Source of the DNA: Chrysomallon squamiferum
Taxonomy: Eukaryota > Animalia > Mollusca
Reading direction: 5' to 3'
Assembly (NCBI GenBank): GCA_012295275.1
Contig: CM022679.1
Span: forward strand, 1,922,001-1,986,000
Length of the DNA: 64,000 bases
The translations under genes and the position numbers were made by a program. Positions 18,256 to 45,900 of the stretch are shown in pieces (positions within the stretch are counted from its first letter, which is position 1; each line of letters starts with the position of its first letter). The notes beneath the pieces are model-generated. The model did not search any database and had not been told where the DNA came from. It saw only the letters and a program-made list of their open reading frames with translations.

Positions 18256-18519
18256 CTTTATTATTTTATTACCTTAAATTTAATTTAATTTAGTTGCTTT
18301 GTTCTGTACCTTAGGTGAACAGTCCCCCAGAAACACATTTTCAAGTATGAGTTCCTGTATTAGCCACTCTGAGGTGGGGGTATCATCACTCACCAGGTGA
18401 CTCACTGTTGCTGCATTCAAGGTACAGATCAAAAAAATAATGGTGAGGAATTATAAAAAAATAAAAATAAAAATAAATAAAATAAAATAAAATAAATATT
18501 CAATAGAAAAAGGTTTATA

Positions 18520-20166
18520 AAGAAGGTGTTTGTATGCAAGAAAATGACAGTAGGATCTTCCATCTCTCTTCCATCTAGGGTGTGTTTTTGTTGTATGCAT
18601 GATATGGAAGAAGAAGAAGAAGAAGAAGAACAATTAAATAACAAAATAAATAAATAAATAAATAAAAATAAATTAGAAAAAAAAAAAAAAAAGAAAAAAT
18701 AAATAAATCTAAACAAATTAAAATTAAACCAAAAATAATAAAAAATAATAAATAAAACAATAATAAAATAAAAAGTAATTAAAAAAAAATAATAAATAAA
18801 ATAAAATAAAAAAATAAAAAGAAAATAAGAAAAAAAGAGGACATTGTTTGAAATAAAATGAAACATTAAATGAAAGGAAAATGTCAGTGTGATCTTCCAT
18901 CTCTTCCATCTAGGGTGTGTTTTTTGTTGTGTGCATAATAATAATAAATAACAAAATAAATAAATAAATAAATAAATAAAAATAATAAATTAAAAAAAAA
19001 AGAAAAAAAATCTATTAGGAAACCAAAAAATAAAAAGTAAATAAATAAGTAAGTGCATAAATAAATAAATAAACAAATAAAATAAAAAAAATAATAAAAT
19101 AATAATAATAATAATAAGTAATTAAAAAAAAAAGTAATTAAAAAAAAAAAATAAATAATAAGAAAAAGAAGTTAGAAAAAGAAAATAAGAAAAAAGAGGA
19201 CAGTGAAAGATGTTTGAATAATCTGTTTGTATGAAGGAAAATGTCAGTGTGATCTTCCATCTCTCTTCCATCTAGGGTGTGTTTTTGTTGTGTGCATGAT
19301 GTGGAAGAAGAAGAAGAAGAAGAAGAAGTAAAAATAAATAACAAAATAAATAAATAAATAAATAAATAAAAATAAATAAATTAAAAAAAAGAAAAAAAAT
19401 AAATAAATAAAAAAGTAAATAAATAAATAAAAAAATAAAAATAAATTAAATAATAATAATAATAAAAAATAAATAAGAAAAAAATCTATTAGGAAACCAA
19501 AAATAAAAAAAAAAAAAATAAATAAAAAAAAAAGAAGTTAGAAAAAGAAAATAAGAAATAAATAAATAAATAAATAAATAAAATGTCAAATAAAATGAAG
19601 AAGAAGAAGAAAAGAAGAAGTCAAAATTAAAAAAAGTAAATAAATAAGTAAGTGCATAAATAAATAAATAAATAAATAAACAAATAAAATGAAGAAATTC
19701 AAAATTAAATAATAATAATAATAATAATAAAAAGTAATTAAAAAAAGAAGTTTGAAAAAGAAAATAAGAAAAAAGAGGTCAGTAAAAGATATTTGGATAA
19801 TATGTTTGTATGCAGGAAAATGTCTGTGTGATCTTCCATCTCTCTTCCATCTAGAGCATGTTTTTGTTGTGTGCATGATGTGGAAGAAGAAATTACTAAT
19901 GAAACAACAAAATAAACAGATAAATAAATAAATAAATAAAAGAGAAGATAATCAAAATTACTTAATTAATTAATTAATTAATTAATAAGAAGAAGAAGAA
20001 GAAGAAGAATTACTAACAAAACAACAAAATAAATAGATAAATAAATAAAAGAGAATATAATCAAAATTAATTAATTAATCATAATAATAATAAAAATAAG
20101 AAGAATTACTAACAAAATAACAAAATAAATAAACGAGAAGATAATCAAAATTAATTAATTAATTAA

Positions 20167-20229
<63 letters not shown>

Positions 20230-20301
20230 TAAGAAGAAGAATTACAAAACAACAAAATAAATAGATAAATAAATAAATAAAAGAGAAAATAGTCATAATT
20301 A

Positions 20302-20337
<36 letters not shown>

Positions 20338-20519
20338 CATAAAAATAATAAGAAGAAGAATTACTAACAAAACAACAAAATAAACAGATAAATAAATAAA
20401 TAAATATAAGAGAAGATAATCAATTAATTAATTAACAATAATAATAATAAGAAGAATTACTAAAAAAACTACAAAATAAATAAATAAAAGAGAAGATAAT
20501 CAAAATTAATTAATTAATC

Positions 20520-20561
<42 letters not shown>

Positions 20562-21050
20562 AAAAAACTAATAAAAAAAGAAGTTTGAAAAAGAAAATAA
20601 GAAAAAAGAGGTCAGTTAAAAATATTTGAATAATATGTTTGTATGCAGGAAAATGTCTGTGTGATGATCTTCCATCTAACTTCCATCTAGGGTGTGTTTT
20701 TGTTGTATGCATCATGTGGAAGAAGAAGAAGAAGAAGGTATTACTTACAAAACAACAAAATAAATAAATATATAAATTAGAGAGAAGATAATCAAAATTA
20801 ATTAATAATAATAACAACAACAACAACAATAAAAAGTAATTAAAAAAAGAAGTTTGAAAAAGAAAATAAGAAAAAAGAAGACAGTAAAAGATGTTTGAAG
20901 AAGATGTTTGTATGCAATGGCAGTGGGATTTCCATATCTTGACTCTTCTTTCTTCTTGGTCTTCCTTCTTCCATGTAGGGTGTATTCGTGTTGTTTGCAT
21001 GATGCAGAGGAAGAAAAAAAAAAAAAAAAAAAAAATTAGGAAAAAGAATT
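18520..21050. repeat. Degenerate complex tandem array: ~6 copies of an ~90-bp core embedded in expanded A-rich microsatellites
   Basis: Core tgtttgtatg(c/a)aggaaaatgtc.gtgtgatcttccatctctcttccatctagggtgtgtttttgttgt.tgcatgat.tggaagaagaag at ~18526, ~18875, ~19225, ~19803, ~20636 and ~20904, separated by AAT, AAAT and GAA runs. Confidence 0.88.
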
Positions 21051-22724
21051 TAGAAGCGTCGGCCGAAATGAGTTTTAAAAAAAAAGAAGAAGAAAAAAGA
21101 AAAAGAAAACCACCTTTTGGACGCTGATTTAGGCGGTTAGCCAAAATAATGAAGATCGGAATCTATATTTTCAGAAATCATGCCGAATTTGATGAAAATA
21201 TCATGAATGCCAATTTCAAAATTTAATTTCCGATCGAGAACCTCTTACACGTTAAAAGTGGTTTCTGAAAGTCACAATTAGTTGCCAGTGACGACGTTAT
21301 TTATAAACCCTGTAACGCGGACGTGACGGAGAACGCCAGAGAAATGCAACGCAATCCGTTAAAATGGCACTAGTCTGTGTTTCTTTTGATTGAAATTAAA
21401 TTAATTCAAAATTTGTTTTAAATATTTTACTTAAAGTCCCGATTAAAATATTTTGCAAGAAACTTCTAGCTTCAGTTTGTAACTTTAATACATCAGTAAA
21501 ACTTGTGTGTAATGTACAGTGCCATACATTTATAGTATCACAACCAGTTTTTACGATGAATATCACGTATAATTACCTTTCTGATGTAATTTGTATTTCA
21601 GTATTTTTATATTTGTAGTGGAATCTTATTATAAAAAACCAGGTTATAATGTGTAAGAAATAAGATACCTTTTGACTCCATATTTACAAAACTGTAACAT
21701 TTCTTTACTAGCTGGCTTGAACAGCTCCATCGAATTGTTCGTGACGTTTCGTTGATTCTCGGTGATTTTACGCGGGAATTTTCGGCCAGCAGATTCGGGT
21801 CTTCCGCACTGAAAGATCTTGTATATAATTCTATTTCCGAAACTGTCATACAATTTTCAGATTATTTCCTGCTGGGTCCCACAGGTTTATGTGACACAGA
21901 ATGTATAAATGTAAACAATAACAAAATAGTGCTGAAAATGTGCAGACAGGGGTAATGACCCATTAAAAATAATATTAAATTACTGTTGTTGCATTAAGTG
22001 TTAGACATTACTCTACAGTTTAAATGCGAAATTGTCTGTGTATTAGCTGACGATTTCTAACGTTTCTGTAACAAAGATCAATTCACAATTTCTCTTACCA
22101 ATAATCCAGGTGTGTGGATAGCTTTCCGACTTCTTGTCAGTTTTTCATACGACAGAAAAAGAAGACAGATATTACATACTATCTTTCTAATATTTACATT
22201 AGCATCTAAAGGACACATTTTTTTATTTGAATTTACAAACGACGTCTTTAAAATTACAATCTCGGCTACATATCACCTCAATTTTAATAGGTATGCTCGT
22301 ATATATATATATGTATTAAATACTCAGCGAAACGTATTGCTTTTTCACTGAAACTATAATGATCTCGTTAGTGCTGCATATAACACATTTCAGAGTTACT
22401 TCCCTTTCTCAGGTGTCCAGGCAAAGGAATGATCAGATTTTTATTTATGAAGTGATTTTTATTTATTTATAAACATGAAATGAGTACACAGTTGTTTTTG
22501 TTTTTTTACATGACTCTCTTTCAAAAATTTGTTTCTGACTCTGAATCAAAGTACAGCTGAGGTAGTGTACTAAATCTATCTCATACTGCTAAGTATTACT
22601 TTGCTGCAGTTACTTCCCTTTACCCAAGTTAATAATCATCAATGACACTGAAACATCAAGGAAACAACAAGTAGATGAAGAAAGCCGAGACCTCAGTTGT
22701 TTTTGTTTTTTGAGGGGGATGGTC

Positions 22725-22937: not shown

Positions 22938-23862
22938 TGATTGTTATCCGACGCTTGAATGGCTAGATCCAGACTCAGTAAGTGCTTTATTTATTTCAAG
23001 CAGAAAAAATACGAGGAAAACTTCGTGAATGCAGGGGAGACCGGGGCAGGCTGGGGCACGTTTCTCATTTTAATATCTGATTCAGATACAAAGCTTGTTA
23101 AATATATTATAAACAAAATAAATACACTCAGATAAATTCTGAACCAGAATGTACAGACAAAGCTAGAGCTGGGCCTGTAATAATAAGACTTTTTGACCCG
23201 TTGCCTTTTGTTAACGGCACGTCTTAGAGTCTCTATCGGAACACGAAAAGCTGTTTCTCGCAGCAATGTTCCCAGACAATCAATTAATTAATCAATCAAT
23301 ATATCTTTTAATGTCCAGTTGACTATTTCATTGGTATCAGGAATTAAATTACTAAAGATGTACAAGAAAATTAATTTATAATAACACACACATTTAGGGA
23401 GTGGCCGAACCTACCCGGCACGACCTTGCACCAGCTTGAAAACTCGCGTGTGTCAAATAGCACTGGGATGTCAGCTGCAGATCTGGCTTATCTAAAACAA
23501 TAAGTGGACAAAAAACGGAAAGAAATTAATTTCTGTATTGTTAATTGTCAGGTGGCCTACCCTGCCCTGGTCTTCCCTATACGATATAATATCACAGAAA
23601 GAGAAGGAACAATCTAAATAATCTCGTTAAAAAAGATTTCAGAGTCATTTTTATCATCAGTTTAGTGTTACTCAAATATAATTACTTGGGAGTATAAATG
23701 TTCTAATATCTAGATGTTTTGTTCGTATCACTTTAATTAACGAAAACCTCATGGTTGGAAATAACGACAAGAAACGGAGAGAAAAAATATATATATTTCT
23801 GTATATTAATATAGTCTTTCAGCGTAAAGATGTACATAACTCACGAGAAGATATTAGGTTTT

Positions 23863-24999
23863 CTAACGAAACATAATCAACGGAGCCATGAATGCAGCAA
23901 AGAGAAAGAGCGCGAAACAAATGCGATTTCCGTTAAAAGCGAACGTTTTTTCACTGGTGGTAGACTCGTCTACAAACCAGCTGATTATCCCGCGGACGTA
24001 AAGTCTACCGCCAAAGTCTCTGAATTGCTTGGAGTTGAAATTCAACAGCGCTATCATCGCTACGTTTGCTAAAGCACAGTTCGCGAGAATGAGAGAAAGA
24101 TAGAGTTCAAAGTTGGTGATGTCTGTCGATGTTCGTGGAATGAATTTGACAATAAAGTTAAAGAACATGCTGTAGGACACTAGAATGTTTATCAGGTATC
24201 CCATCTGCTCTCCAGGGGTAGGGGGAAATAGAAATGCCACTGGTGTCACGAACGAAAGTAAAAAGAGAGGAATTAACGTACTGGTAATGTAGAACAGGTT
24301 TTTACGCAGTAGAGTCAGCTGAATTTCTGCAATTTCAATTTTGTGATCCAAACCTAAATGAATCACATGGTTATTTAAATCCTTTAGAATCCATTCGCTG
24401 GCTATGTCGAAAAAATCGTTAAGACTAAAATCCGTTTTCATGAAGTGAAACTGGTAGCGCGCACCGTGCATTCCGGTAATTGAAAGTTTGCAGTGTTGGG
24501 TGTCGAACGGGAAACGGCTGGTATCAAGTCTGCAAGCAGTTTTGGAGATTCCGTGTATTTCGTACATCACCAGACCAGAAGACGATACAACAAAAGGAAT
24601 ATCAGATTCCATTTTTTGACTTTCAATTGAATTGAGAAGCAAAAGGGTTGGTTTCCATAAAGCTTTCGCAGACATTTGAATTTCTCTGATGTCTCCGTAC
24701 TCAGCTGGATCCCACACGAGTCGAGGATCTAACCAGAGAAACGTATAAAACGTTTCAAAATAAAATGTCTGTCCAAAATGGCCGATGTCAATGACTGCTA
24801 CGGGAGTGAGATGTACGAAGACTGTATCATTACTTTCTTTGAGAATCGCTGGAGTATGGCGGGAATATCCAGTCAACAGATCTTTTGTAAGCTGTTGGTA
24901 TTCTAGACTTTGTGTGATGGCGTCTGAAGACGCTGTTGCAGTAGATATTATGAGCACAACACCAAGAAGAAAACACGTTACACAAAGGTTTTCAGTCAT
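23863..24999 (-). CDS. Intronless divergent Cys-loop ligand-gated ion channel subunit (nAChR-like, non-alpha), 378 aa
   Basis: Signal peptide MTENLCVTCFLLGVVLIISTATA; W.D.RL.W.P..Y motif; LWKP loop A; Cys-loop C-x13-C (CRLDTSRFPFDTQHC); SEW; LRK..FY..L.P; GEQ before M2; P-RTS in the M2-M3 loop; four hydrophobic helices. Single open frame. Confidence 0.93.
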   Translation of the reverse strand: MTENLCVTCFLLGVVLIISTATASSDAITQSLEYQQLTKDLLTGYSRHTPAILKESNDTVFVHLTPVAVIDIGHFGQTFYFETFYTFLWLDPRLVWDPAEYGDIREIQMSAKALWKPTLLLLNSIESQKMESDIPFVVSSSGLVMYEIHGISKTACRLDTSRFPFDTQHCKLSITGMHGARYQFHFMKTDFSLNDFFDIASEWILKDLNNHVIHLGLDHKIEIAEIQLTLLRKNLFYITSTLIPLFLLSFVTPVAFLFPPTPGEQMGYLINILVSYSMFFNFIVKFIPRTSTDITNFELYLSLILANCALANVAMIALLNFNSKQFRDFGGRLYVRGIISWFVDESTTSEKTFAFNGNRICFALFLFAAFMAPLIMFR

Positions 25000-25613
25000 T
25001 GTTAATTTAAGAAATAATAATTAATTTCAAAACGACCGATGACTTATAACCAGACTATGTGATACAAACTGTAGTGACAGGCTTGCTGCAGCTACTCTTC
25101 AGCTGACGCTTCGAGACGAAACAGTTTCTGAAACTTTAGCTGACCTTGTTTGTAAATCGAGCAATCATAAAATATGACAACATGATTATATGGTTATTTA
25201 CATGAAAGGAATCATTTAACAAATTAATAAACGTAAAAACTTTATTGACTGTCAGTGACTTTATACACACATGGTATAAACTTGTGCAGCAAGTTCTTCT
25301 ATTAGATTATTATCACACTGGATAAAGCCGCGATTGTATGTTTATAGAAAACTAATTTTCGAACAATTTATCAAAACAATATATACAATAAACGCAAACA
25401 TTTTATAGCCTTTTTAGGAACCTTTTAAACAGAAATCAATTTTTATCGTTATACAGAATCTACAACCGTTATAACAAATAGAAACAGTTGTTGTTTATTT
25501 CACTTAAAAACATACTCAGACTGCTGGAGCTTTGCAAGATACACACTGATCGCGTGCTTCTCTGTAGTACACAGATAAAAAAAAATTATAATTTAAAAAA
25601 TATATATATCACA
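25000..25613. promoter_or_regulatory. Putative bidirectional promoter shared by the two Cys-loop channel genes
   Basis: Only 614 bp lie between the divergent ATGs (24999 on -, 25614 on +). TATA-like tataaa at ~25275. Inferred from geometry. Confidence 0.55.
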
Positions 25614-28600
25614 ATGTTAAGAATTTTAAAATATTCTTTCATTTTCTTTCTGGTTTTCCGACGATCGTGTGTTCGAAACAAAAACAAGAATCAAGCATAA
25701 TTACCGTTAGGAAAGACCACTTTCAATCGGAAACAGAGCCAGATTCGGAGATTAGTAGACTAAGACAGTCCAGTAATCCAGAGACGGAACTTTACAAAGG
25801 AGAAAAAACGTCAAGAAACATATTTGTGACAGAAGCATTTAGTGATAATTTTAAATTTCTGAGTAATGGAGCTAAAGCCAGAGCAAAGAAAAGCATATTA
25901 CAGGATGACAAAACAGCTGATAAATCTACAACGTATGCAAAAGTCACAAGCGAAGGAGTATTAAAAGGTACTGATACCACAACGAAAACAGCTACAAATA
26001 TATTTCAAACCACAATTTCACTAGTTTCAGGGTCTACACAAACTGTAGCAAGAAATACATTTGGAATGGAAAAAGCAGGAAAACCTCAGCCCGCAAATCA
26101 TATAGTAACTGACAGTCCTGCTTCAGGCGAAATTATTTCAGAAACCAAAAATACACAGGTATCTGTCAATCAGACTGATTTGGAATCAACTTCCACGATG
26201 ATTCCAAAAACCTCTAATTCTGAAACCACCAGTCAAGCTAATAAAGAAATCAACAGTCAAATTGACAAAGAAACCAGCAATCAAGCTAATAAAGAAATCA
26301 ACAGTCAAACTGACAAAGAAACCAGCAGTCAAACTAATGCAGAAATCAACAGTCAAACTGACAAAGAAACAAGCAGTCAAGCTAATGCAGAAATCAACAG
26401 TCAAACTAACCAAGAAACCAGTAGTCAAACTAACAAAGAAACCAGCAGTCAAACTGACAAAGAAACCAGCAGTCAAACTAACGCAGAAATCAACAGTCAA
26501 ACTAACAAAGAAACCAGCAGTCGAGCTAATGCAGAAATCAACAGTCAAACTAACAAAGAAACCAGCAATCAAGCTAATACAGAAATCAACAGTCAAACTG
26601 ACAAAGAAACCAGCAATCAAGCTAATACAGAAATCAACAGTCAAACTAACAAAGAAACCAGCAGTCAAGCTAATACAGAAATCAACAGTCAAACTGACAA
26701 AGAAACCAGCAGTCAAGCTAATAAAGAAATCAACAGTCAAACTGACAAAGAAACCAGCAGTCAAGCTAATACAGAAATCAACAGTCAAACTGACAAAGAA
26801 ACAAGCAGTCAAGCTAATGCAGAAATCAACAGTAAAACTGACAAAGAAACCACCAATCAAACTAATGCAGAAATCAACAGTCAAACTAACCAAGAAACAA
26901 GCAGTCAAGCTAATGCGGAAATCAACAGTCAAACTGACAAAGAAACCAGCAGTCAAGCTAATGCAGAAATCAACAGTCAAACTAACAAAGAAACAAGCAG
27001 TCGAGCTAATGCAGAAATCAACAGTCAAACTAACAAAGAAACAAGCAGTCGAGCTAATGCGGAAATCAACAGTCAAACTAACAAAGAAACAAGCAGTCAA
27101 GCTAATGCAGAAATCAACAGTCAAACTAACAAAGAAACAAGCAGTCAAGCTAATGCAGAAATCAACAGTCAAACTAACAAAGAAACAAGCAGTCAAACTA
27201 ATGCAGAAATCAACAGTCAAACTAACAAAGAAATCAAGCAGTCAAACTAATGCACAAATCAAACAGTCAAACTAACAAAGCAAGCAGTCAAACTAATGCA
27301 GAAATCAACAGTCAAACTAACAAAGAAACAAGCAGTCAAACTAATGCAGAAATCAACAGTCAAACTAACAAAGAAACAAGCAGTCAAGCTAATGCAGAAA
27401 TCAACAGTCATGCTGACAAAGAAACCACCAATCAAACTAATGCAGAAATCAACAGTCAAACTGACAAAGAAACAAGCAGTCAAGCTAATGCAGAAATCAA
27501 CAGTCAAACTGACAAAGAAACCACCAATCAAACTAATGCAGAAATCAACAGTCAAACTGACAAAGAAACAAGCAGTCAAACTAATGCAGAAATCAACAGT
27601 CAAACTGACAAAGAAACCAGCAGTCAAGCTAATGCAGAAATCAACAGTCAAACTGACAAAGAAACAAGCAGTCAAGCTAATGCAGAAATCAACAGTCAAA
27701 CTGACAAGGAAACCAGCAGTCAAACTAACGCAGAAATCAACAGTCAAATTGACAAAGAAACCAGCAGTCAAGCTAATGCAGAAATCAACAGTCAAACTAA
27801 CCAAGAAACAAGCAGTCAAGCTAATGCAGAAATCAACAGTCAAACTGACAAAGAAACAAGCAGTCAAGCTAATGCAGAAATCAACAGTCAAACTGACAAA
27901 GAAACCACCAATCAAACTAATGCAGAAATCAACAGTCAAACTAACAAAGAAACAAGCAGTCAAACTAATGCAGAAATCAACAGTCAAACTGACAAGGAAA
28001 CCAGCAGTCAAACTAATGCAGAAATCAACAGTCAAACTGACAAAGAAACAACCATTCAAACTAATGCAGAAATCAACAGTCAAACTGACAAGGAAACCAG
28101 CAGTCAAACTAATGCAGAAATCAACAGTCAAACTGACAAAGAAACAACCATTCAAACTAATGCAGAAATCAACAGTCAAACTGACAAAGAAACCACCAAT
28201 CAAACTAATGCAGAAATCAACAGTCAAACTGACAAAGAAACAAGCAGTCAAACTAATGCAGAAATCAACAGTCAAACTGACAAAGAAACAAGCAGTCAAA
28301 CTAATGCAGAAATCAACAGTCAAACTGACAAGGAAACCAGCAGTCAAACTAACGCAGAAATCAACAGTCAAACTAACAAAGAAACAAGCAGTCAAACTAA
28401 TGCAGAAATCAACAGTCAAACTGACAAAGAAACAAGCAGTCAAACTAACGCAGAAATCAACAGTCAAACTGACAAAGAAACAAGCAGTCAAACTAATGCA
28501 GAAATCAACGGTCAAACTGACAAAGAAACAAGCAGTCAAACTAATGCAGAAATCAACAGTCAAACTAACAAAGAAACAAGCAGTCAAACTAATGCAGAAA

Positions 28601-30327
28601 TCAACAATCAAACTGACAAGGAAACAACCAGTCAAGCTAATGCAGAAATCATCGATCAGAATAAACCAAGTTTATCAAAAAATGAATCTTTTTTATCAAC
28701 TTCTGAAACACCGTCATCAACAACTGCTAAAACGTTATCAGCAACGACATTATCTGAAGAGGTATCCAAAATTTCAGAAGTTGCCGACCCAAATGACAAA
28801 GAAACTACAAATCAAACAACAATAAACTGTTTTAATGCCACTGGAAGTATTAAATCTTTTACAGGCAATAATGTTATAACTGAAGACGCAACCAGCGGCG
28901 TTACGAACACCACTGAAGATCTCACCCAGACCGCATCGGTGACAAATTTGAAAACACCAACTGTTCCAGCAACCAGTACAAATAACGATGGTGCCACCAT
29001 GGAAACCACTTCAGTTACTTTAAACGACCCTACATTAGAAACTCTAGCCGCAGTCTCAGGCGACATTCATCTTTCTTCTCCAGGTGTAGAAACAACTATT
29101 CCCGGTAAATTATCTTCTTCGAGTAAAATAACAACTTCGGCCGCAGCAGAATCTATCACATCAACATCAACAACTTTGACTGTTGATGAATATACGACGC
29201 CAACCGAGGTCTCAACTGAGAATCATAAAGCTAGCAGATTATTCAGAATTAATCGGCTTAAGAAAATAAAACATATATTAGCATACAATAAACTTGTCAA
29301 ATATTTAATGAAGAATTACAATGTAATCGTCCCTTCCTTTTGTCGACTGTTTGGGAACAACACCATCGTCGTATCAGTACTACCAGTGGCGGTTCTAGGG
29401 ATTAACGAGGTGGAACAAATTTTATTGTTTCAGGGAATGTTTCGATTCAAATGGTTCGACAAACGATTGTCGTGGAATCCTGATGACTATGGCGGCCTTG
29501 AAACGATTGAGATTGACTCGAGTTTAATCTGGAAACCGAAGATCCTCATCATTAACTCGGCTGAGGGCGAATCCCTGAAAAGCAACATTCCTTTGCTGCT
29601 GCACCACACTGGTTACGTGACTGAAGAGAAGCATGGGATATCAAAAACAACGTGCGAGGTAAACACGTCCCGCTATCCGTTTGACGCTCAGAGGTGCAAG
29701 CTGTCGTTCGGTGGTATTCAGGGCATGAAGTACAACTTTGTCCTGGACGATCCAGACCATTCACTGGGACGTCATTTTTTAATAAACAGCGAATGGAATT
29801 TCAAACAAATAGACGGTCGTGTATCCGAAATCTATTTCACGTCCTCGGGTTTTTCAGACGTTGCTGAATACACTGTGCACGTTGAACGGAAGAGTCCATT
29901 TTACGTCGTGAGCAACATTTTTCCCATATTTCTACTCTCCTTAATGACGTCTTTTGTTTTTCTTTTCCCGCCAGTGTCTGATGAAAAAGTGGGCTATTTG
30001 ATTTCCATTTTTGTTTCGTATGCAATATTCTTGAACTTTATAACTGAATCCATGCCACGAACGTCGACTTCTGTTTCCAATATGGAAACTTACCTTCTGC
30101 TCGTTCTCATACATTGTGCTTCAGCTGTTGTCGTAGCAGCATTCACCGAAGGGTGGAGATCGGAGAGTCGCGTCTGTGCAGTTGATTATTTTAAGTCAGC
30201 GGAGCAAAAAGAAAAGGCAGAATTTAAAAAGAAAGAAAATGCCTTGAAACAACGCCGCGTGGATTATATCTACTTTACACTGTATCTGACAGCATCTTGC
30301 TTCTTCCTCTTTTGTTTTTATTTGTAA
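25614..30327 (+). CDS. Intronless Cys-loop channel subunit with giant N-terminal tandem-repeat/mucin-like extension (~1570 aa after correcting two frame disruptions at ~25655 and ~27235-27281)
   Basis: ATG at 25614 gives MLRILKYSFIFFLVF, which joins PTIVCS/KQKQ of the 25667 ORF if one base is added in the TTTT/CC run. ORFs 25667-27250 and 27250-30327 encode the same repeat in register. The C-terminal ~350 aa has WFDKRLSWNPDDYGG, IWKP, CEVNTSRYPFDAQRC, NSEW, ERKSPFYV..IFP, DEK-M2, PRTS and M4. A pseudogene cannot be excluded. Confidence 0.85.
26227..28650 (+). repeat. Coding minisatellite, 48-bp unit (two related 24-bp halves), ~50 copies, encoding SQT(D/N)KETS-SQ(A/T)NAEIN
   Basis: agtcaaact(g/a)acaaagaaac(c/a)agc + agtcaa(g/a)ctaatgcagaaatcaac repeated continuously over ~2.4 kb. 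Confidence 0.97.
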
Positions 30328-30421
30328 AATAAGGCAGAATTTTAATCCCGATTCGAAATTGTAAATGATTAGAAAATGAAAACATTAATAAAAGTGCAGT
30401 GAAGTTTACAATTATGTTTTT

Positions 30422-31930: not shown

Positions 31931-32760
31931 TTAAAAATAAGTTATATTGTTAGTATTTCGGAAATCTTTGCTCATCTGCGGCTGAAATCCGCCAGCCTGA
32001 AAAATGTCTTCATTACGATTTCTTTTCAGAGGTGGTGAAATTTTATCATCATTTTTCAGTGGTTCCACAGCCGTGTTTTCGTTAGCACTGTTACAACAAA
32101 ACACAACAATAATGCGATTTATCAAAAAAATAATCACTAAAATGTTCTTCAAGGTGAAAAATATGATTGTGTACGTTATCAGGGTGTAGGTGATCATGCT
32201 GTACAGACGAATAGCCAAGAATGGTCCGTCTGCAACAAGAAAGATAAGACAAAGCGACCAGATGTCGGTCGTAAAAAATCCCTTTTTGGTTTGTTGAAAT
32301 TTATTCCCCTCTTTTCGTGTTACCAGAACGAACGCGAACTGTAATAGACTTAACGTCCAAGCAGAAAGAATGACGAATGTCAGATTCCTGTCTTTTCTGA
32401 TGGGAGCTTCGTCAAAAAGAGAAAACAACTCGAGATTATCCGAGGCGAGTCCCATGTAGGTGAAAAGAAGCTGAGAAAGATCGTCTTTGGTCATACACCC
32501 TCGCTGCATCAACCATCGGCTGAGAATAACGAGAAATAGCAATGACTGCTCGATCAGGGCCACCCACACGCTAGCATTTAGTGTCAGTGGTATTGTTAAC
32601 TGTTTTAAAAAAAAAAAATATATATTTTAATATATTACGATAATCAAACACGTTAAATAATAATAATAATAATATAAAAGAAAATAATTAAATAATATAT
32701 ATGTATATATATACATACAGATAGATAGAAACAAAGGCAGACAAACATATATCACTATAG

Positions 32761-38600: not shown

Positions 38601-40932
38601 CTTTTTTTTATGCTTCCAAGATATTTTAATAATCAATCTTTTGTTTTGGTGTTAACAAATACCTAAAGTGTAAATACACTTATTACATTTCCACATGATT
38701 ATTTTGTTTATCTATTCACTGCAGATGTGATATAAGTTTGGTGTAACAGATGTGATTAAGAGTGTGTTTTAAAACAGTGTGTAATCAAGTCACAGACAGT
38801 TAATACCTTATTGATGTTTGTGGCTCAATCACATACTACTTTATATGTATTTAATAATGTTTTTATGATCTGTGCTTTGTTAGAATTAATATTTAATGTT
38901 TGATCACCAGCCTGAATCACATATATTCTGTTTAATATATTAATTTCACATGTATCAGCTGGAAGGTGTTAACATGAAATAAGATATTAAACAGTTTGTA
39001 CGTGTATTGGTTAGATTCGTGTTACTTTCTGTTTGTTGTAGAAAGAAACAGATCATTAAACTTGAAGTTCATGATATGTAAAATCTGTACACAAAATTAG
39101 AAATGTTCAGAAATATTAGTTTTGTAATAATGTTGCTGATATAGCCCTGCAGAATTATTTTTTTCATAGTTGCTTTTCATACAGAAAATATGCGTATGTA
39201 CACACCATGTATATTTATTATCTATGAATTTATTTATTATAATTTAACTGTGATTACACAGGGGTTGTTTTATTGAGTTTCGAAGTGGAATGATCAACAT
39301 CTGCCCAGTGGGGAGAAGCTGTTCCCAAGAAGAACGACTCCAGTTTGCACAGTTTGACAAAGTACACAGCAGTTTTAAATGTTTTGTATCTAACAGTTTG
39401 ACAAAGTACACAATAGTTTTAAATGTTTTGTATCTAACAGTTTGACAAAGTACACAATAGTTTTAAATGTTTTGTATCTAGCAGTTTGACAAAGTACACA
39501 ACAGTTTTACATGTTTTGTATCAAACAGTTTGACAAAGTACACAACAGTTTTACATGTTTTGTATCTAACAGTTTGACAAAGTACACAGCAGTTTTAAAT
39601 GTTTTTTTAATCTAACAGTTTGACAAAGTACACAACAGTTTTAAATGTTTTTTTAATCTAACAGTTTGACAAAGTACACAACAGTTTTAAATGTTTTAAA
39701 TCTAACAGTTTGACAAAGTACACAACAGTTTTAAATGTTTTTTAAATCAAACAGTTTGACAAAGTACACAACAGTTAAATGTTTTTTAAATCGAACAGTT
39801 TGACAAAGTACACAACAGTTTTAAATGTTTTGTATCTAACAGTTTGACAAAGTGCGCAACAGTTTTAAATGTTTTTTAAGTTTGACAAAGTACACAGCAG
39901 TTTTAAATGTTTTTTTAATCTAACAGTTTGACAAAGTACACAAAAGTCTTGTTTTAAATTGTTTTTTATCTAACACTTTGACATTTTAAAAAACATCTTA
40001 TGTCATTTTCAACTATTTGTTGTCTACCACGATGGCAAATACATAAATGGTTAATCTCCAAGAATTTCCAAAAACAGTTTTAGAATTTATGTAACAGAGT
40101 TTGAGTTCTGTGTTTGTAGAAATAAAAAAAATGGTAAAATAACCATGGTAGTAAGCACAACCTTTGTTATGTGCATTTGTATCTTGTAAATCATTAAAGT
40201 TTTAATATTGCCGTTAATGATTTCAGGAAAACAAGATCAGGGAAAAGTTCGTTGAAGCTTTAACAAAGAATTTTGTTAACTCTGGTTTGGTGTTTGCTAT
40301 CGGAGGACAGATTAGTATTGATGTTTATCCCGAAGGCTGGGATAAGACATTTTGTTTACAGTACATTGAGAAAGATAACTACAAAAATGTACATTTCTTT
40401 GGAGACAAAACAGCAAAAGTAAGTTGTTTTTGTTTTTTCAAATATTTATTAATTAATTTATGGGACTGTAGTCTGAAACTATTAATCTTTCTCAATAAAT
40501 ATTTGTTTACGGTTTTAATTTCGTTACTAACAATGTACAAATGTGGTAAAGAACTGAATCTCACATTACTGTATATTCTTACATCTTTTGTAAACTGCTT
40601 ATTCTTCTCTTGTTTTTTTTAGGTAATGGAATACATTTTTCAGCAAGAAAGGCAAAGAAATTATTTTTAAAAATTTCTTATTCCTTTGTTTTATAACATC
40701 TTATATGTTAATGTTGGTATTTTTGATATAATTATTATTACTAATACTATAATAAATTTACTTACTTATTTATTTATTTATTTATTTATTTTCTTCTATA
40801 TAAATCTGATTGTTGTTGTTTTTGTTTCAGGGAGGAAATGATCATGAAATCTTTGAGGACCCACGGACAATTGGACATAAAGTTTCCAATCCAGACGACA
40901 CTATAAAACAAATAACTGATATGTTGTTTTGA
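35666..40932 (+). CDS. PMM2: Eukaryotic phosphomannomutase (PMM1/PMM2 family, HAD IIB)
   Basis: Exons 35666-35737 ([12 protein letters not shown]), 36206-36323 (VGGSD), 36873-36949 ([10 protein letters not shown]), 37893-37984, 39262-39361 ([23 protein letters not shown]), 40227-40418 ([21 protein letters not shown]) and 40831-40932 ([11 protein letters not shown]). Confidence 0.96.
39349..39945 (+). repeat. 14 x ~44-bp tandem repeat spanning the PMM exon 5 end and donor
   Basis: Unit acagtttgacaaa|gtacacaacagttttaaatgttttgtatcta. The first copy is the real exon end (cag ttt gac aaa|gt). Confidence 0.95.
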
Positions 40933-42973: not shown

Positions 42974-45900
42974 TCATCCCATAGATATATCAACTGGGAG
43001 ACTGATGTTGCTGAAGGAATAGAAAGCAATTTCCCCGTTGTCGACCACAGCCCAGTGTAATGGTACTCCATCATTCAAGTTTTCAGTTGCTGCAGTGAGG
43101 TCAGCCAAGTTCGGTGGACTGTCAGAACTTCTGAAAAAATAATAATGGTTTTATTAATATTATAGTATCTGTCAGAATTAATTAATGTACATTTAATTTC
43201 ATATCTATTACACAGAAAATGTTTAAAAGATGATTAAATACACAAGTATGAAAGCACTATTATTATGCCACCATTTCCATGCACCGAGATATTAACTGTA
43301 GAATCTTGCACATATTTTAAAGTCAGTTTTATAATGAACTGACTGGGTGGGCTGACTACAATAGTTTTTTTCCTATTCCAATCAATGCCCTTCAAGTAGT
43401 ATGTAAGCAGTTGTGATATGTGTTTTTGTTTTTTTTACACAAAATTTTTATTTGAAATCAAAGCAAGTATGCAATGTATTGGTTTCAGCAGGATTTTTCT
43501 GGTGTATAACTGATGAAATAAAAATAAAGGTGACTGTTAATATTAAAAAGTGTTCAGTGTTGTTAAGTATTTAGTACCTGGTTACACACACTCTGTGATT
43601 GGGAAGACCTGGAGCTGACTTCTTGAACTTTCCATCAGGAAGAAAAACATCAAACGAAATCTTTATTTGTCTAGATCTGAGAATTAATAAAAATAAAAAT
43701 AAAAACAATAAAAATAATAATTAAAAAGTAAAAATAATAGTAATAATAAAAATAAACTAAGATATGATAATAACTACAAAACTTCTTTTTTTTTTTTTGA
43801 AAGAGTAAAGAACACTTAAGTTAAATTTGTTTTCAAATTTTTAATTATTTTTTCTTGTATCTGCTGGATTGATTACCAAAGCATACATGCGTAGATTTTG
43901 AAGAGCTAGGTACCAGGTACATTCAACTTGAAAATGTACTTTATGTTCACATTTTAATGAAAACAATTAATTACATTTTTAACATTTTTTATACGGAAGC
44001 TTGAAACCATTAGTCTGTTGTAAAAATAAATTTATTTTTGTAATATCAAGGGAAAATTTGAAGTGAAATAAACAACATCCAACTTACTGTTTTAAATGTC
44101 CAGGTTTATAAGGTTTGATTATACTCAGTCTGCTCAGAATATTTGCTGCAATTAAAACAAAAATAAATTTTTAGAATTGTTTAATTTTTTTTTAGAAATA
44201 CTCTAATTGGCACCATTGGTTTTAAAGTATATCATTATATAGAAGTAAATTAAATAACAACAACAAAAAACTAAATAATAATAATAATAATTAATAAAAC
44301 AAATCAAAATAATATAATAATTAAAAAAGGAAATAACAATAAGCAAAATAATAAGAAACATAAGCTTAAAAAGAAATCAAAAACACTTACCTGTAGATAT
44401 TGCATCTTCTGGTCTGACAAGTGGAGTTACCTCCCCTCCCCACAAATGACTTACTGGTGTGTCAACTGTATTTACACTTGTTTTTTCTCTCAGCTTCTTT
44501 TTATGCTCCTCCCAGTTGTTGGCTTCTATTTTATTTTGTGAACACATCCAGTCAGCGTAAGAGAAATGTAAACTTTCTAAACATGGATCTGATTGCAGAT
44601 TTCTGTTGCTATAACTGAAGTTGAAATTTTCTCTATACTTGACCACGTCAAAGATACACTGATCATTAATCTCTTCTGATACTTCAACATTTGGAGGCAA
44701 CAGTTTTCTTGAAGGAATTTTTAAAATGACAGAATCTTTACCTGCAATGTTTGGGAAATCAATTTCATCAAAGTTCCATTTAGAACATTTCATCCTTTGT
44801 TTTTTAACTGATTTTAAATTTGTCCATTCTGTAACATTCCAAACATTTTGAAACTGTTTTTGGTTCATACATTTTTCTTCAACATGTTCTGCTAGTGTTT
44901 CATGTCTGCTCTCACACTTGTGTTTTTTCTCAGAACTGATAGAGGACAGATTTGGCTCCTCTTTCAACAGCTTTTTATCATCCCCTTTTGTTATCTTTTG
45001 TAGGTTTGGATTATCAATTCCTTTATCATTTTTTCTAAAACCAGATATTTCTGTATCCATCAAGTCCTTTTCATAACTGTTTGGATCGTTTATTTCCAAT
45101 TCTAGGATGTTCTGTTTCTCATCAGATAAATTTATCTCCATCTTATTATCTTCTGGATGTTTTTCTTCATTTACTTCACATGTGTTCATTTTATTCTTTT
45201 CTGATTCATCTTTGTCATCAAAAAGCTTTTGTTTCTTTTCTTCTTTTTGTGAATCTATGCCTGCCTGTTTGGTTTCTCCAGTACTAGATTTATCTTTTTC
45301 TTCAAGTTTTCGTTTTCTTTGTTTTAAATGTTTGACATATTTATCTAGTTTAATCTTTCTCTCATATGGGGTAACAACACATCTGAAAACAAAACAAAAC
45401 ATTTTAAAACTTAGCAAATAAACTGTGAAAAAAACAAACAAAAAACCTTGTAGTTTATTCTCTTTTAATATTTTGTCAGTATACCTATAAGATAAAGGAA
45501 GGAAAAACAAAAAAGTATTGTTCATTGAATACAAATAAATAATGTTTGAAATGATGTATTAGCATATAAGATATATAAATATATATATTTATTTATATTG
45601 TAATAAGAACATTGCAGGAGCTTAAATAAAATAAATACCAAAACAATTGTGGCACAACAAAATCTGAAAAATAACCTAATTGCAATTGTCCCGAGTGAAA
45701 TAAATTGTGTTTAACATGCTTCGTTCAGTTGTAACAGTTAAATTTGTTCTTTATGATAGTGTTGAATAAAAAATATTTCATAAAATGTTACTGAATATCA
45801 AAAATAAAGATATAAATAAACAGTACCTACTTGCCTCTGTGTCTGAGAACAACATAACCCAGTCGTCTGAGATGTGCATATACCTGGTATTCCTCTAGTT

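Follow-up and report, generated by a model that had tools for sequence, protein, structure and literature searches.

The window analysed here, 64,000 nucleotides of Chrysomallon squamiferum (GenBank assembly GCA_012295275.1, contig CM022679.1, positions 1,922,001 to 1,986,000 of the forward strand; coordinates below count from its first letter), contains at 25614-30327 on the plus strand the coding sequence of a Cys-loop ligand-gated channel subunit, in which a hydrophobic leader, a region of unique residues, an array of 16-residue repeats and a Ser/Thr-rich stalk precede a complete Cys-loop extracellular domain and the membrane segments M1-M4. This fused architecture, proposed in a preliminary description made from the letters alone, is seen in the sequence, in Pfam matches and in a predicted model, and at the DNA level no intron is needed anywhere in the coding region, as had also been proposed. 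As it stands, the window does not contain one continuous frame. The locus is split into two open frames (25592-27250 and 27226-30327), the ATG at 25614 sits in a third, which reaches a stop at 25698, and a second shift falls at about 27230-27280. Our protein model, built with an X at both breaks, has 1,571 residues and consists of the leader, 181 unique residues (where about 190 had been estimated), 811 residues in the array, 210 in the stalk and 348 in the channel. The whole extension ahead of the channel comes to 1,202 residues, and this length and the 50.6 repeat copies agree with the first estimates of about 1200 and 50. GC content is 0.37-0.38 in the 5' unique part and the stalk, 0.42 in the channel and 0.28-0.30 in the flanks.

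The start codon and a predicted signal peptide, with a basic n-region, a hydrophobic core and a Val-Cys-Ser end, were read from the sequence at 25614-25675 (+), and the leader has a typical look (top nine-residue hydropathy 2.1) once the first break, A, is read through. At this break (25653-25654, +) the window lacks one base. Seven public sequencing runs from three studies, none recorded as RNA, contain at least half of the stretch's sampled words, and one of the seven may be the window's own source; contigs of runs X1, X2, X6 and X7 were compared over 23300-26230, and those of X1, X3, X6 and X7 over 28600-30415. One extra base stands behind 25653 in all three covering runs (X1, X2 and X6, from two studies), and with it the ATG and its hydrophobic leader read straight into the first long frame. 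This makes break A a mistake of the assembly, as the preliminary description had suspected. That X7 gives no cover here in the 5' comparison is a filter effect, as its 5'-flank contig appears in the 3' comparison.

The second break, B (27230-27280, +), was resolved by alignment to neighbouring units into indels of +1, +1 and -3 and one substitution, net -1, all inside one patch of about 50 bp in an otherwise indel-free 2.4-kb array, where all 46 regular units measure 48 bp and the single longer block 96 bp. This pattern fits a poorly polished patch better than mutation, and break B, too, is probably an assembly error. In the covered coding parts there is no stop or frameshift, on the 5' side in X1, X2 and X6 or on the 3' side in X1, X3, X6 and X7; indels between runs are located in the spacer ahead of the gene and behind its stop codon, and the coding sequence is free of them apart from the base that repairs break A. 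With its leader cut off by a one-base error, the gene would probably be overlooked or shortened by automatic annotation.

Composition of the extension

The unique N-terminal region (25676-26221, +; 181 residues, 28% Ser+Thr, no cysteine) and the stalk (28652-29232, +; 210 residues, 35% Ser+Thr, 4% Pro) are each open in one of six frames, and in both that frame is the channel's. Counted over 186 codons, the 5' unique part has 6-17 stops in each of the other five frames, and the stalk, over 211 codons, has 4-21; none of 20,000 base shuffles stayed open for either part. Taken as a whole, the extension is about one-third Ser+Thr, with one cysteine and 11 N-glycosylation sequons. The first 318 residues of the structural model show no secondary structure, and 315 of them have a predicted local distance difference test score (pLDDT) below 50, these residues being modelled with no alignment depth; the extension is thus likely to be disordered, in keeping with the preliminary description. 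No usable match in the Atlas was obtained for the unique N-terminal region and the first half of the array.

Between the two unique parts lies a coding minisatellite of about 810 residues (26222-28651, +), for which Tandem Repeats Finder gives a period of 48, 50.6 copies and 93% matches. Each 48-bp unit is made of two 24-bp halves, and the consensus 16-residue unit is EINSQTDKETSSQANA. The array is 33% Ser+Thr, 27% Asn+Gln and 0% Pro, with a net negative charge, and the earlier label of mucin-like suits the stalk better than the array, which, having no proline, is not a classical mucin domain. A Pfam match above cut-off to Fibrinogen_BP (PF08017) was taken as a match of 16-residue period and composition, and a beta-solenoid was set aside because an eight-unit model, again with no alignment depth, had no structure.

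Three observations bear on the presence of the array in the animals' DNA. On either side of the array, flank contigs enter the repeat units and end after a few dozen bases; many short unit-like contigs stack on the last unit in all four runs of the 3' comparison (X1, X3, X6, X7); and X7 has a reworded unit 96 bases ahead of the last one, a distance at which the frame is kept. Together they place the array in these genomes, in frame at its 3' end. The summed contig depth at the last unit, about 21, 17, 20 and 5 times the flank in the same four runs, is no copy number and was not used as evidence of length variation. Over 28600-30415, X7 appears as a more divergent allele with 10 differences, its terminal repeat units reworded and the frame kept.

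The array motif DKETTNQT recurs once in the stalk, at 28795, and an eight-residue exact match arose in none of 5,000 shuffles. This lone copy suggests that the array grew from local sequence; the signal is significant in the protein-level test of all units alone, the DNA-level consensus unit scoring 31 against the stalk where the shuffle maximum was 38. The stalk also holds an acceptor-like site (29062-29083, +; phase 1), a pyrimidine tract (15 of 17 pyrimidines) followed by CAG, and 29 acceptor-like sites of this type occur in 128 kb, counting both strands. Internal starts at ATG 28999 and ATG 29308 were dismissed, as no leader stands behind either. An exact GCCACCATGG lies at 28993-29002 (+) in the stalk, in the channel's frame; no leader comes after it, and it is probably there by chance.

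Between stalk and channel runs a basic junction (29233-29271, +), which contains the only two R-x-x-R motifs of the 1,571 residues and is predicted to lengthen the first helix of the channel domain (model helix 319-351). A change at 29255 removes the second motif in X1 and X7, two of the four runs.

Channel domain, variation and relatives

The last 350 codons match PF02931 at 106.6 bits (cut-off 26) and PF02932 at 25.0 bits, slightly below its cut-off of 28.1, so that of the Neur_chan_LBD/Neur_chan_memb pair named in the preliminary description one is clearly present and the other falls just short. The extracellular domain (29281-29895, +), of non-alpha type by PF02931 and by alignment to Torpedo alpha, carries its Cys loop at 29653-29697, a C-x13-C with the conserved proline, both cysteines and the PFD being invariant in all 15 aligned rows. 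M1-M4 follow at 29899-30327 (+), assigned by hydropathy, model and alignment, with Glu at -1', a short M3-M4 loop and the stop codon at 30325-30327; the four transmembrane helices appear both as hydropathy peaks and as model helices. Among solved structures, muscle-type alpha and alpha7 nicotinic subunits are nearest in sequence; the fold prediction has a mean pLDDT of 81 and aligns to alpha7 in Foldseek with an E-value of 1e-29 and a template modelling (TM) score of 0.70. For the channel, the Atlas gave generic Cys-loop clusters alone, below its recognition threshold.

In the alignment to Torpedo alpha the loop C cysteines are absent, Ser-Ser standing opposite C192-C193. The aromatic box is likewise replaced, with Ile for Y93, a gap for W149, Phe for Y190 and Val for Y198, in Torpedo numbering. 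With these binding residues lost, the domain would not be expected to bind acetylcholine in the manner of an alpha subunit; as judged from its sequence, it is a divergent nicotinic-type non-alpha subunit. Its DEK aligns with Torpedo GEK, and the Glu at -1' before M2 leads us to predict cation flow and hence a cation channel, a GEK-type motif at this place being read as cation selectivity in the accessible text of PMC13174522. In M2 itself (29983-30048, +), Val at 9' and a polar Asn at 16' replace the Leu of vertebrate nicotinic subunits; Val 9' is invariant in the 15 aligned rows and Asn 16' is common, which suggests an unusual gate in this clade.

Variation between runs suggests that the gene is alive. 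In the channel domain seven of nine variant sites are silent, against an expected 22-27% (binomial p 0.0006-0.002), and the two replacements are Leu to Phe and Ile to Met. These mostly silent variants favour a live channel over a relaxed pseudogene, as the preliminary description had supposed. In the unique extension two of seven variants are silent, close to the neutral share; one of these seven, at 26181, is common to all three runs and may be another error of the window, and the Val/Ala difference at break A was excluded from the count. These are low counts, taken from contigs, in which rare variants are lost.

A second intronless Cys-loop subunit gene (23863-24999, -; 378 residues, PF02931 100.7 bits) lies head-to-head with the first, at 42% identity over 289 residues. 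It has an ordinary signal peptide and no extension, and its loop C is two residues shorter. The two start codons are separated by a 614-bp spacer (25000-25613, on neither strand), which differs between runs by indels and may be a shared promoter. The runs differ at five bases of the paralogue, altering four codons, and no silent difference is among the five, unlike in the channel domain of its neighbour.

A full HMMER search gave 8,004 proteins at E-values up to 0.001, and the best 150 of the 8,004 were examined. The closest among the matches listed is Gigantopelta aegis XP_041376553.1, at 46% identity, and the top matches named come from Gigantopelta, Haliotis and Bulinus, which points to a gastropod source. 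In a quick tree of 72 rows, including 70 of 151 matches, our subunit, its paralogue and the Gigantopelta aegis protein form a clade with an SH-like approximate likelihood ratio test (SH-aLRT) support of 97, and the wider clade takes in Haliotis, Bulinus and Batillaria. The distance from the start to the first helix has a median of 28 residues among the 151 relatives examined, bearing out the general statement that such subunits begin this helix soon after the signal peptide. It exceeds 80 residues in five of the 151: a Bulinus model, two dipteran alpha7-like proteins, a gopher model and a prawn model. The two closest relatives, the paralogue and the Gigantopelta aegis protein, have no extension, and since no such repeat occurs in the relatives examined, the extension appears to be a derived feature of this copy. 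Word-based homologue searches, with the single query or a 15-row alignment, returned one match at near length and none among longer proteins, which is weak evidence. In Bulinus truncatus KAH9500480.1, about 540 residues of cysteine-rich repeats stand ahead of three Cys-loop stretches; this could reflect separate genes joined in one model or, within the wider clade, a further case of N-terminal fusion.

Elsewhere in the window, an exon of a TMEM26-like gene lies at 31931-32626 (-; PF09772, 138 bits) and a phosphomannomutase exon at 40221-40622 (+; PF03332, 99 bits). A charged open frame of 393 codons at 44377-45558 (-) has no Pfam match. The very AT-rich stretch 18400-21200 contains a short element that recurs several times amid poly-A and TAA runs.

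Readings of the extended subunit

The accessible part of PMC6896357 describes 11-120 intronless nicotinic acetylcholine receptor (nAChR) genes per mollusc, arranged in tandem arrays and with binding residues lost. Like these, our gene needs no intron, is paired with a neighbour, combines a ligand-binding domain with four helices and has lost the residues that contact acetylcholine, and by these signs it is a member of the intronless gastropod nicotinic-receptor expansion, a real and apparently functional one. The same source, as far as accessible, notes additional domains, dynamin and GAIN among them, and proteins of as many as 2,013 residues; it names no repeat extension, though its gene tables could include one. 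What sets our gene apart from the molluscan intronless subunits is precisely its 1,202 residues with a 50-copy repeat; in the nearest relatives the leader is followed at once by the first helix. The cephalopod subunit CRT1 is similar in being intronless, nAChR-derived and remodelled at its binding site, according to the accessible passages of PMC13174522, which mention no extension. That text treats 15 molluscan clades, and the term 'N-terminal' occurs in what is accessible of it 0 times. CRT1 ranks 59th of the 60 structures listed for the family profile, below vertebrate alpha subunits, and our tree includes no CR sequence.

Further from home, the rodent GABA-A epsilon subunit (Gabre) carries a Pro/Glx repeat of about 400 residues, the translation of which is disputed. 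It resembles our case as a lineage-restricted repetitive insertion in the extracellular N-terminal part whose translation is in doubt, and it differs in belonging to the anion-channel branch, in being multi-exon and proline-rich, in its independent origin and in having one-third of the length, the extension described here being some three times as long as the epsilon repeat. The preliminary description knew of no described subunit with this architecture, and missed this precedent: a long extracellular repeat in a Cys-loop subunit is already described, and it is in the nicotinic branch that such an extension is apparently undescribed, in that we could not find one. Searches of accessible full-text literature, which leaves most subscription journals outside its coverage, returned no Cys-loop subunit with a Ser/Thr tandem-repeat ectodomain, and term look-ups in PMC4795631, PMC7507344, PMC1363348, PMC11871041 and PMC7736800 yielded nothing further on it. 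A repeat motif was not found in four supplementary files, one of them truncated, of a proteome study on a vent snail, the species match being unconfirmed. Two dipteran alpha7-like proteins (Drosophila persimilis GL21259 and Episyrphus XP_055847513.1), for which we assume the label 'alpha5', have 316-404 extra low-complexity residues before the ligand-binding domain; they differ in having no tandem array and no leader at the very start, the extra part presumably preceding an internal signal, and in their distant clade. Membrane mucins likewise have a long tandem repeat rich in Ser and Thr, encoded by a single large exon and preceded by a signal peptide. Unlike them, our protein has an array devoid of proline and a channel subunit as anchor, and no SEA or vWD domain was found by Pfam.

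The best explanation, to which we give slightly less than even confidence, is one protein of about 1,570 residues whose glycosylated brush stays on the subunit and would affect access, spacing or turnover and not gating. The long protein is likely to be translated as one chain, and its extension is probably glycosylated. After the duplication that yielded the neighbouring paralogue, this copy would have acquired a Ser/Thr-rich N-terminal segment, and slippage or unequal crossing-over, working in steps of 24 and 48 bp, would have multiplied a motif that survives once in the stalk. Selection would preserve the frame and the channel and hardly the sequence of the extension; its bulk as a spacer would matter more than its letters. 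The channel might be opened by a ligand other than acetylcholine, or the subunit might join a mixed pentamer, perhaps together with its neighbour, and bind no ligand itself. At a surface coated with mucus, the brush would govern how accessible the channel is, how it is spaced or how long it stays.

Several points weigh against this explanation. The long protein is predicted from DNA, and we infer the steps beyond it; break B stands in the window as given. The array is open in three of six frames, and its variants are silent in the coding frame at four of 19 distinct sites and in two other frames at seven of 19, so that the array alone is no proof of translation. Channel and extension do not differ significantly in their share of silent variants (Fisher p 0.13), and a tandem Ser/Thr repeat behind the leader occurs in none of the 151 relatives examined, which leaves function with no support from cross-species conservation. 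The acceptor-like site at 29083 could permit a spliced short form; for Gabre, alternative exon-2 transcripts exist, and translation of its repeat is in doubt. Finally, even small N-terminal tags can lower the surface expression of alpha4beta4, according to the accessible part of PMC4786271.

The basic junction invites a different reading, in which the extension is a pro-domain cut there by a proprotein convertase, leaving a subunit of about 360 residues and a shed glycoprotein. The sole two R-x-x-R motifs do lie 8-15 residues ahead of the channel's first helix, and so does the 15-residue window with the strongest basic charge in the extension (net +7). Yet furin prefers Lys or Arg at P2, which neither motif carries, one motif is lost in two of four runs, and in the model the junction opens a helix that runs on into the channel domain; we regard such cleavage as unlikely, if a serious contender. 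Somewhat less probable still is that the main mRNA splices the array out within the open frame and the subunit keeps a short extension. A phase-1 donor-like site at 25968 (six of nine consensus positions) would pair with the phase-1 acceptor-like site at 29083, much as rodent Gabre has alternative exon-2 transcripts, but the donor is weak, the acceptor has 29 comparable sites in 128 kb, and the unique sequence flanking the array, which would then be intronic, is stop-free in the coding frame, arguing that at least one long form is translated.

If break B were real, the allele or gene would make a secreted fragment of about 550 residues, with the channel part a young pseudogene. The frameshift is indeed present in the window, and many of the intron-poor nAChR copies of molluscs show low expression (7.7% and 31% below 1 read per kilobase per million, RPKM, in two bivalves, in the accessible part of the source). 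We consider this improbable, given that three indels and a substitution cluster in 50 bp while the rest of the 2.4-kb array is indel-free, that an indel error of this assembly has been demonstrated at 25653 and that the channel variants are mostly silent. Least probable of these alternatives, in our estimate, is a tether to mucus, matrix or a touched surface that opens the channel by force or delivers surface-bound ligands. By arithmetic the chain would span about 450 nm if fully stretched, it sits directly on the first helix, the acetylcholine site is lost, and intronless molluscan relatives serve contact chemosensing in cephalopods (PMC13174522, as far as accessible); against this, Pfam and the Atlas found no folded binding domain at the tip, the sequence of the extension varies about neutrally and, on general reasoning, a long disordered chain transmits force poorly until stretched. 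A bolder picture, and a long shot, is a channel-mucin hybrid whose filament of up to several hundred nanometres, tuned by repeat number, would reach through the mucus coat and couple touch, flow or surface-bound molecules to the opening of a non-acetylcholine cation channel.

A live gene with 1,200 extra residues shows how much the N terminus of a Cys-loop subunit can carry, and its adjacent paralogue, lacking the extension, provides a ready-made control. Rodent GABA-A epsilon has posed the question of the translation and the role of such repeats, and for this the gene described here offers a single-exon test case.

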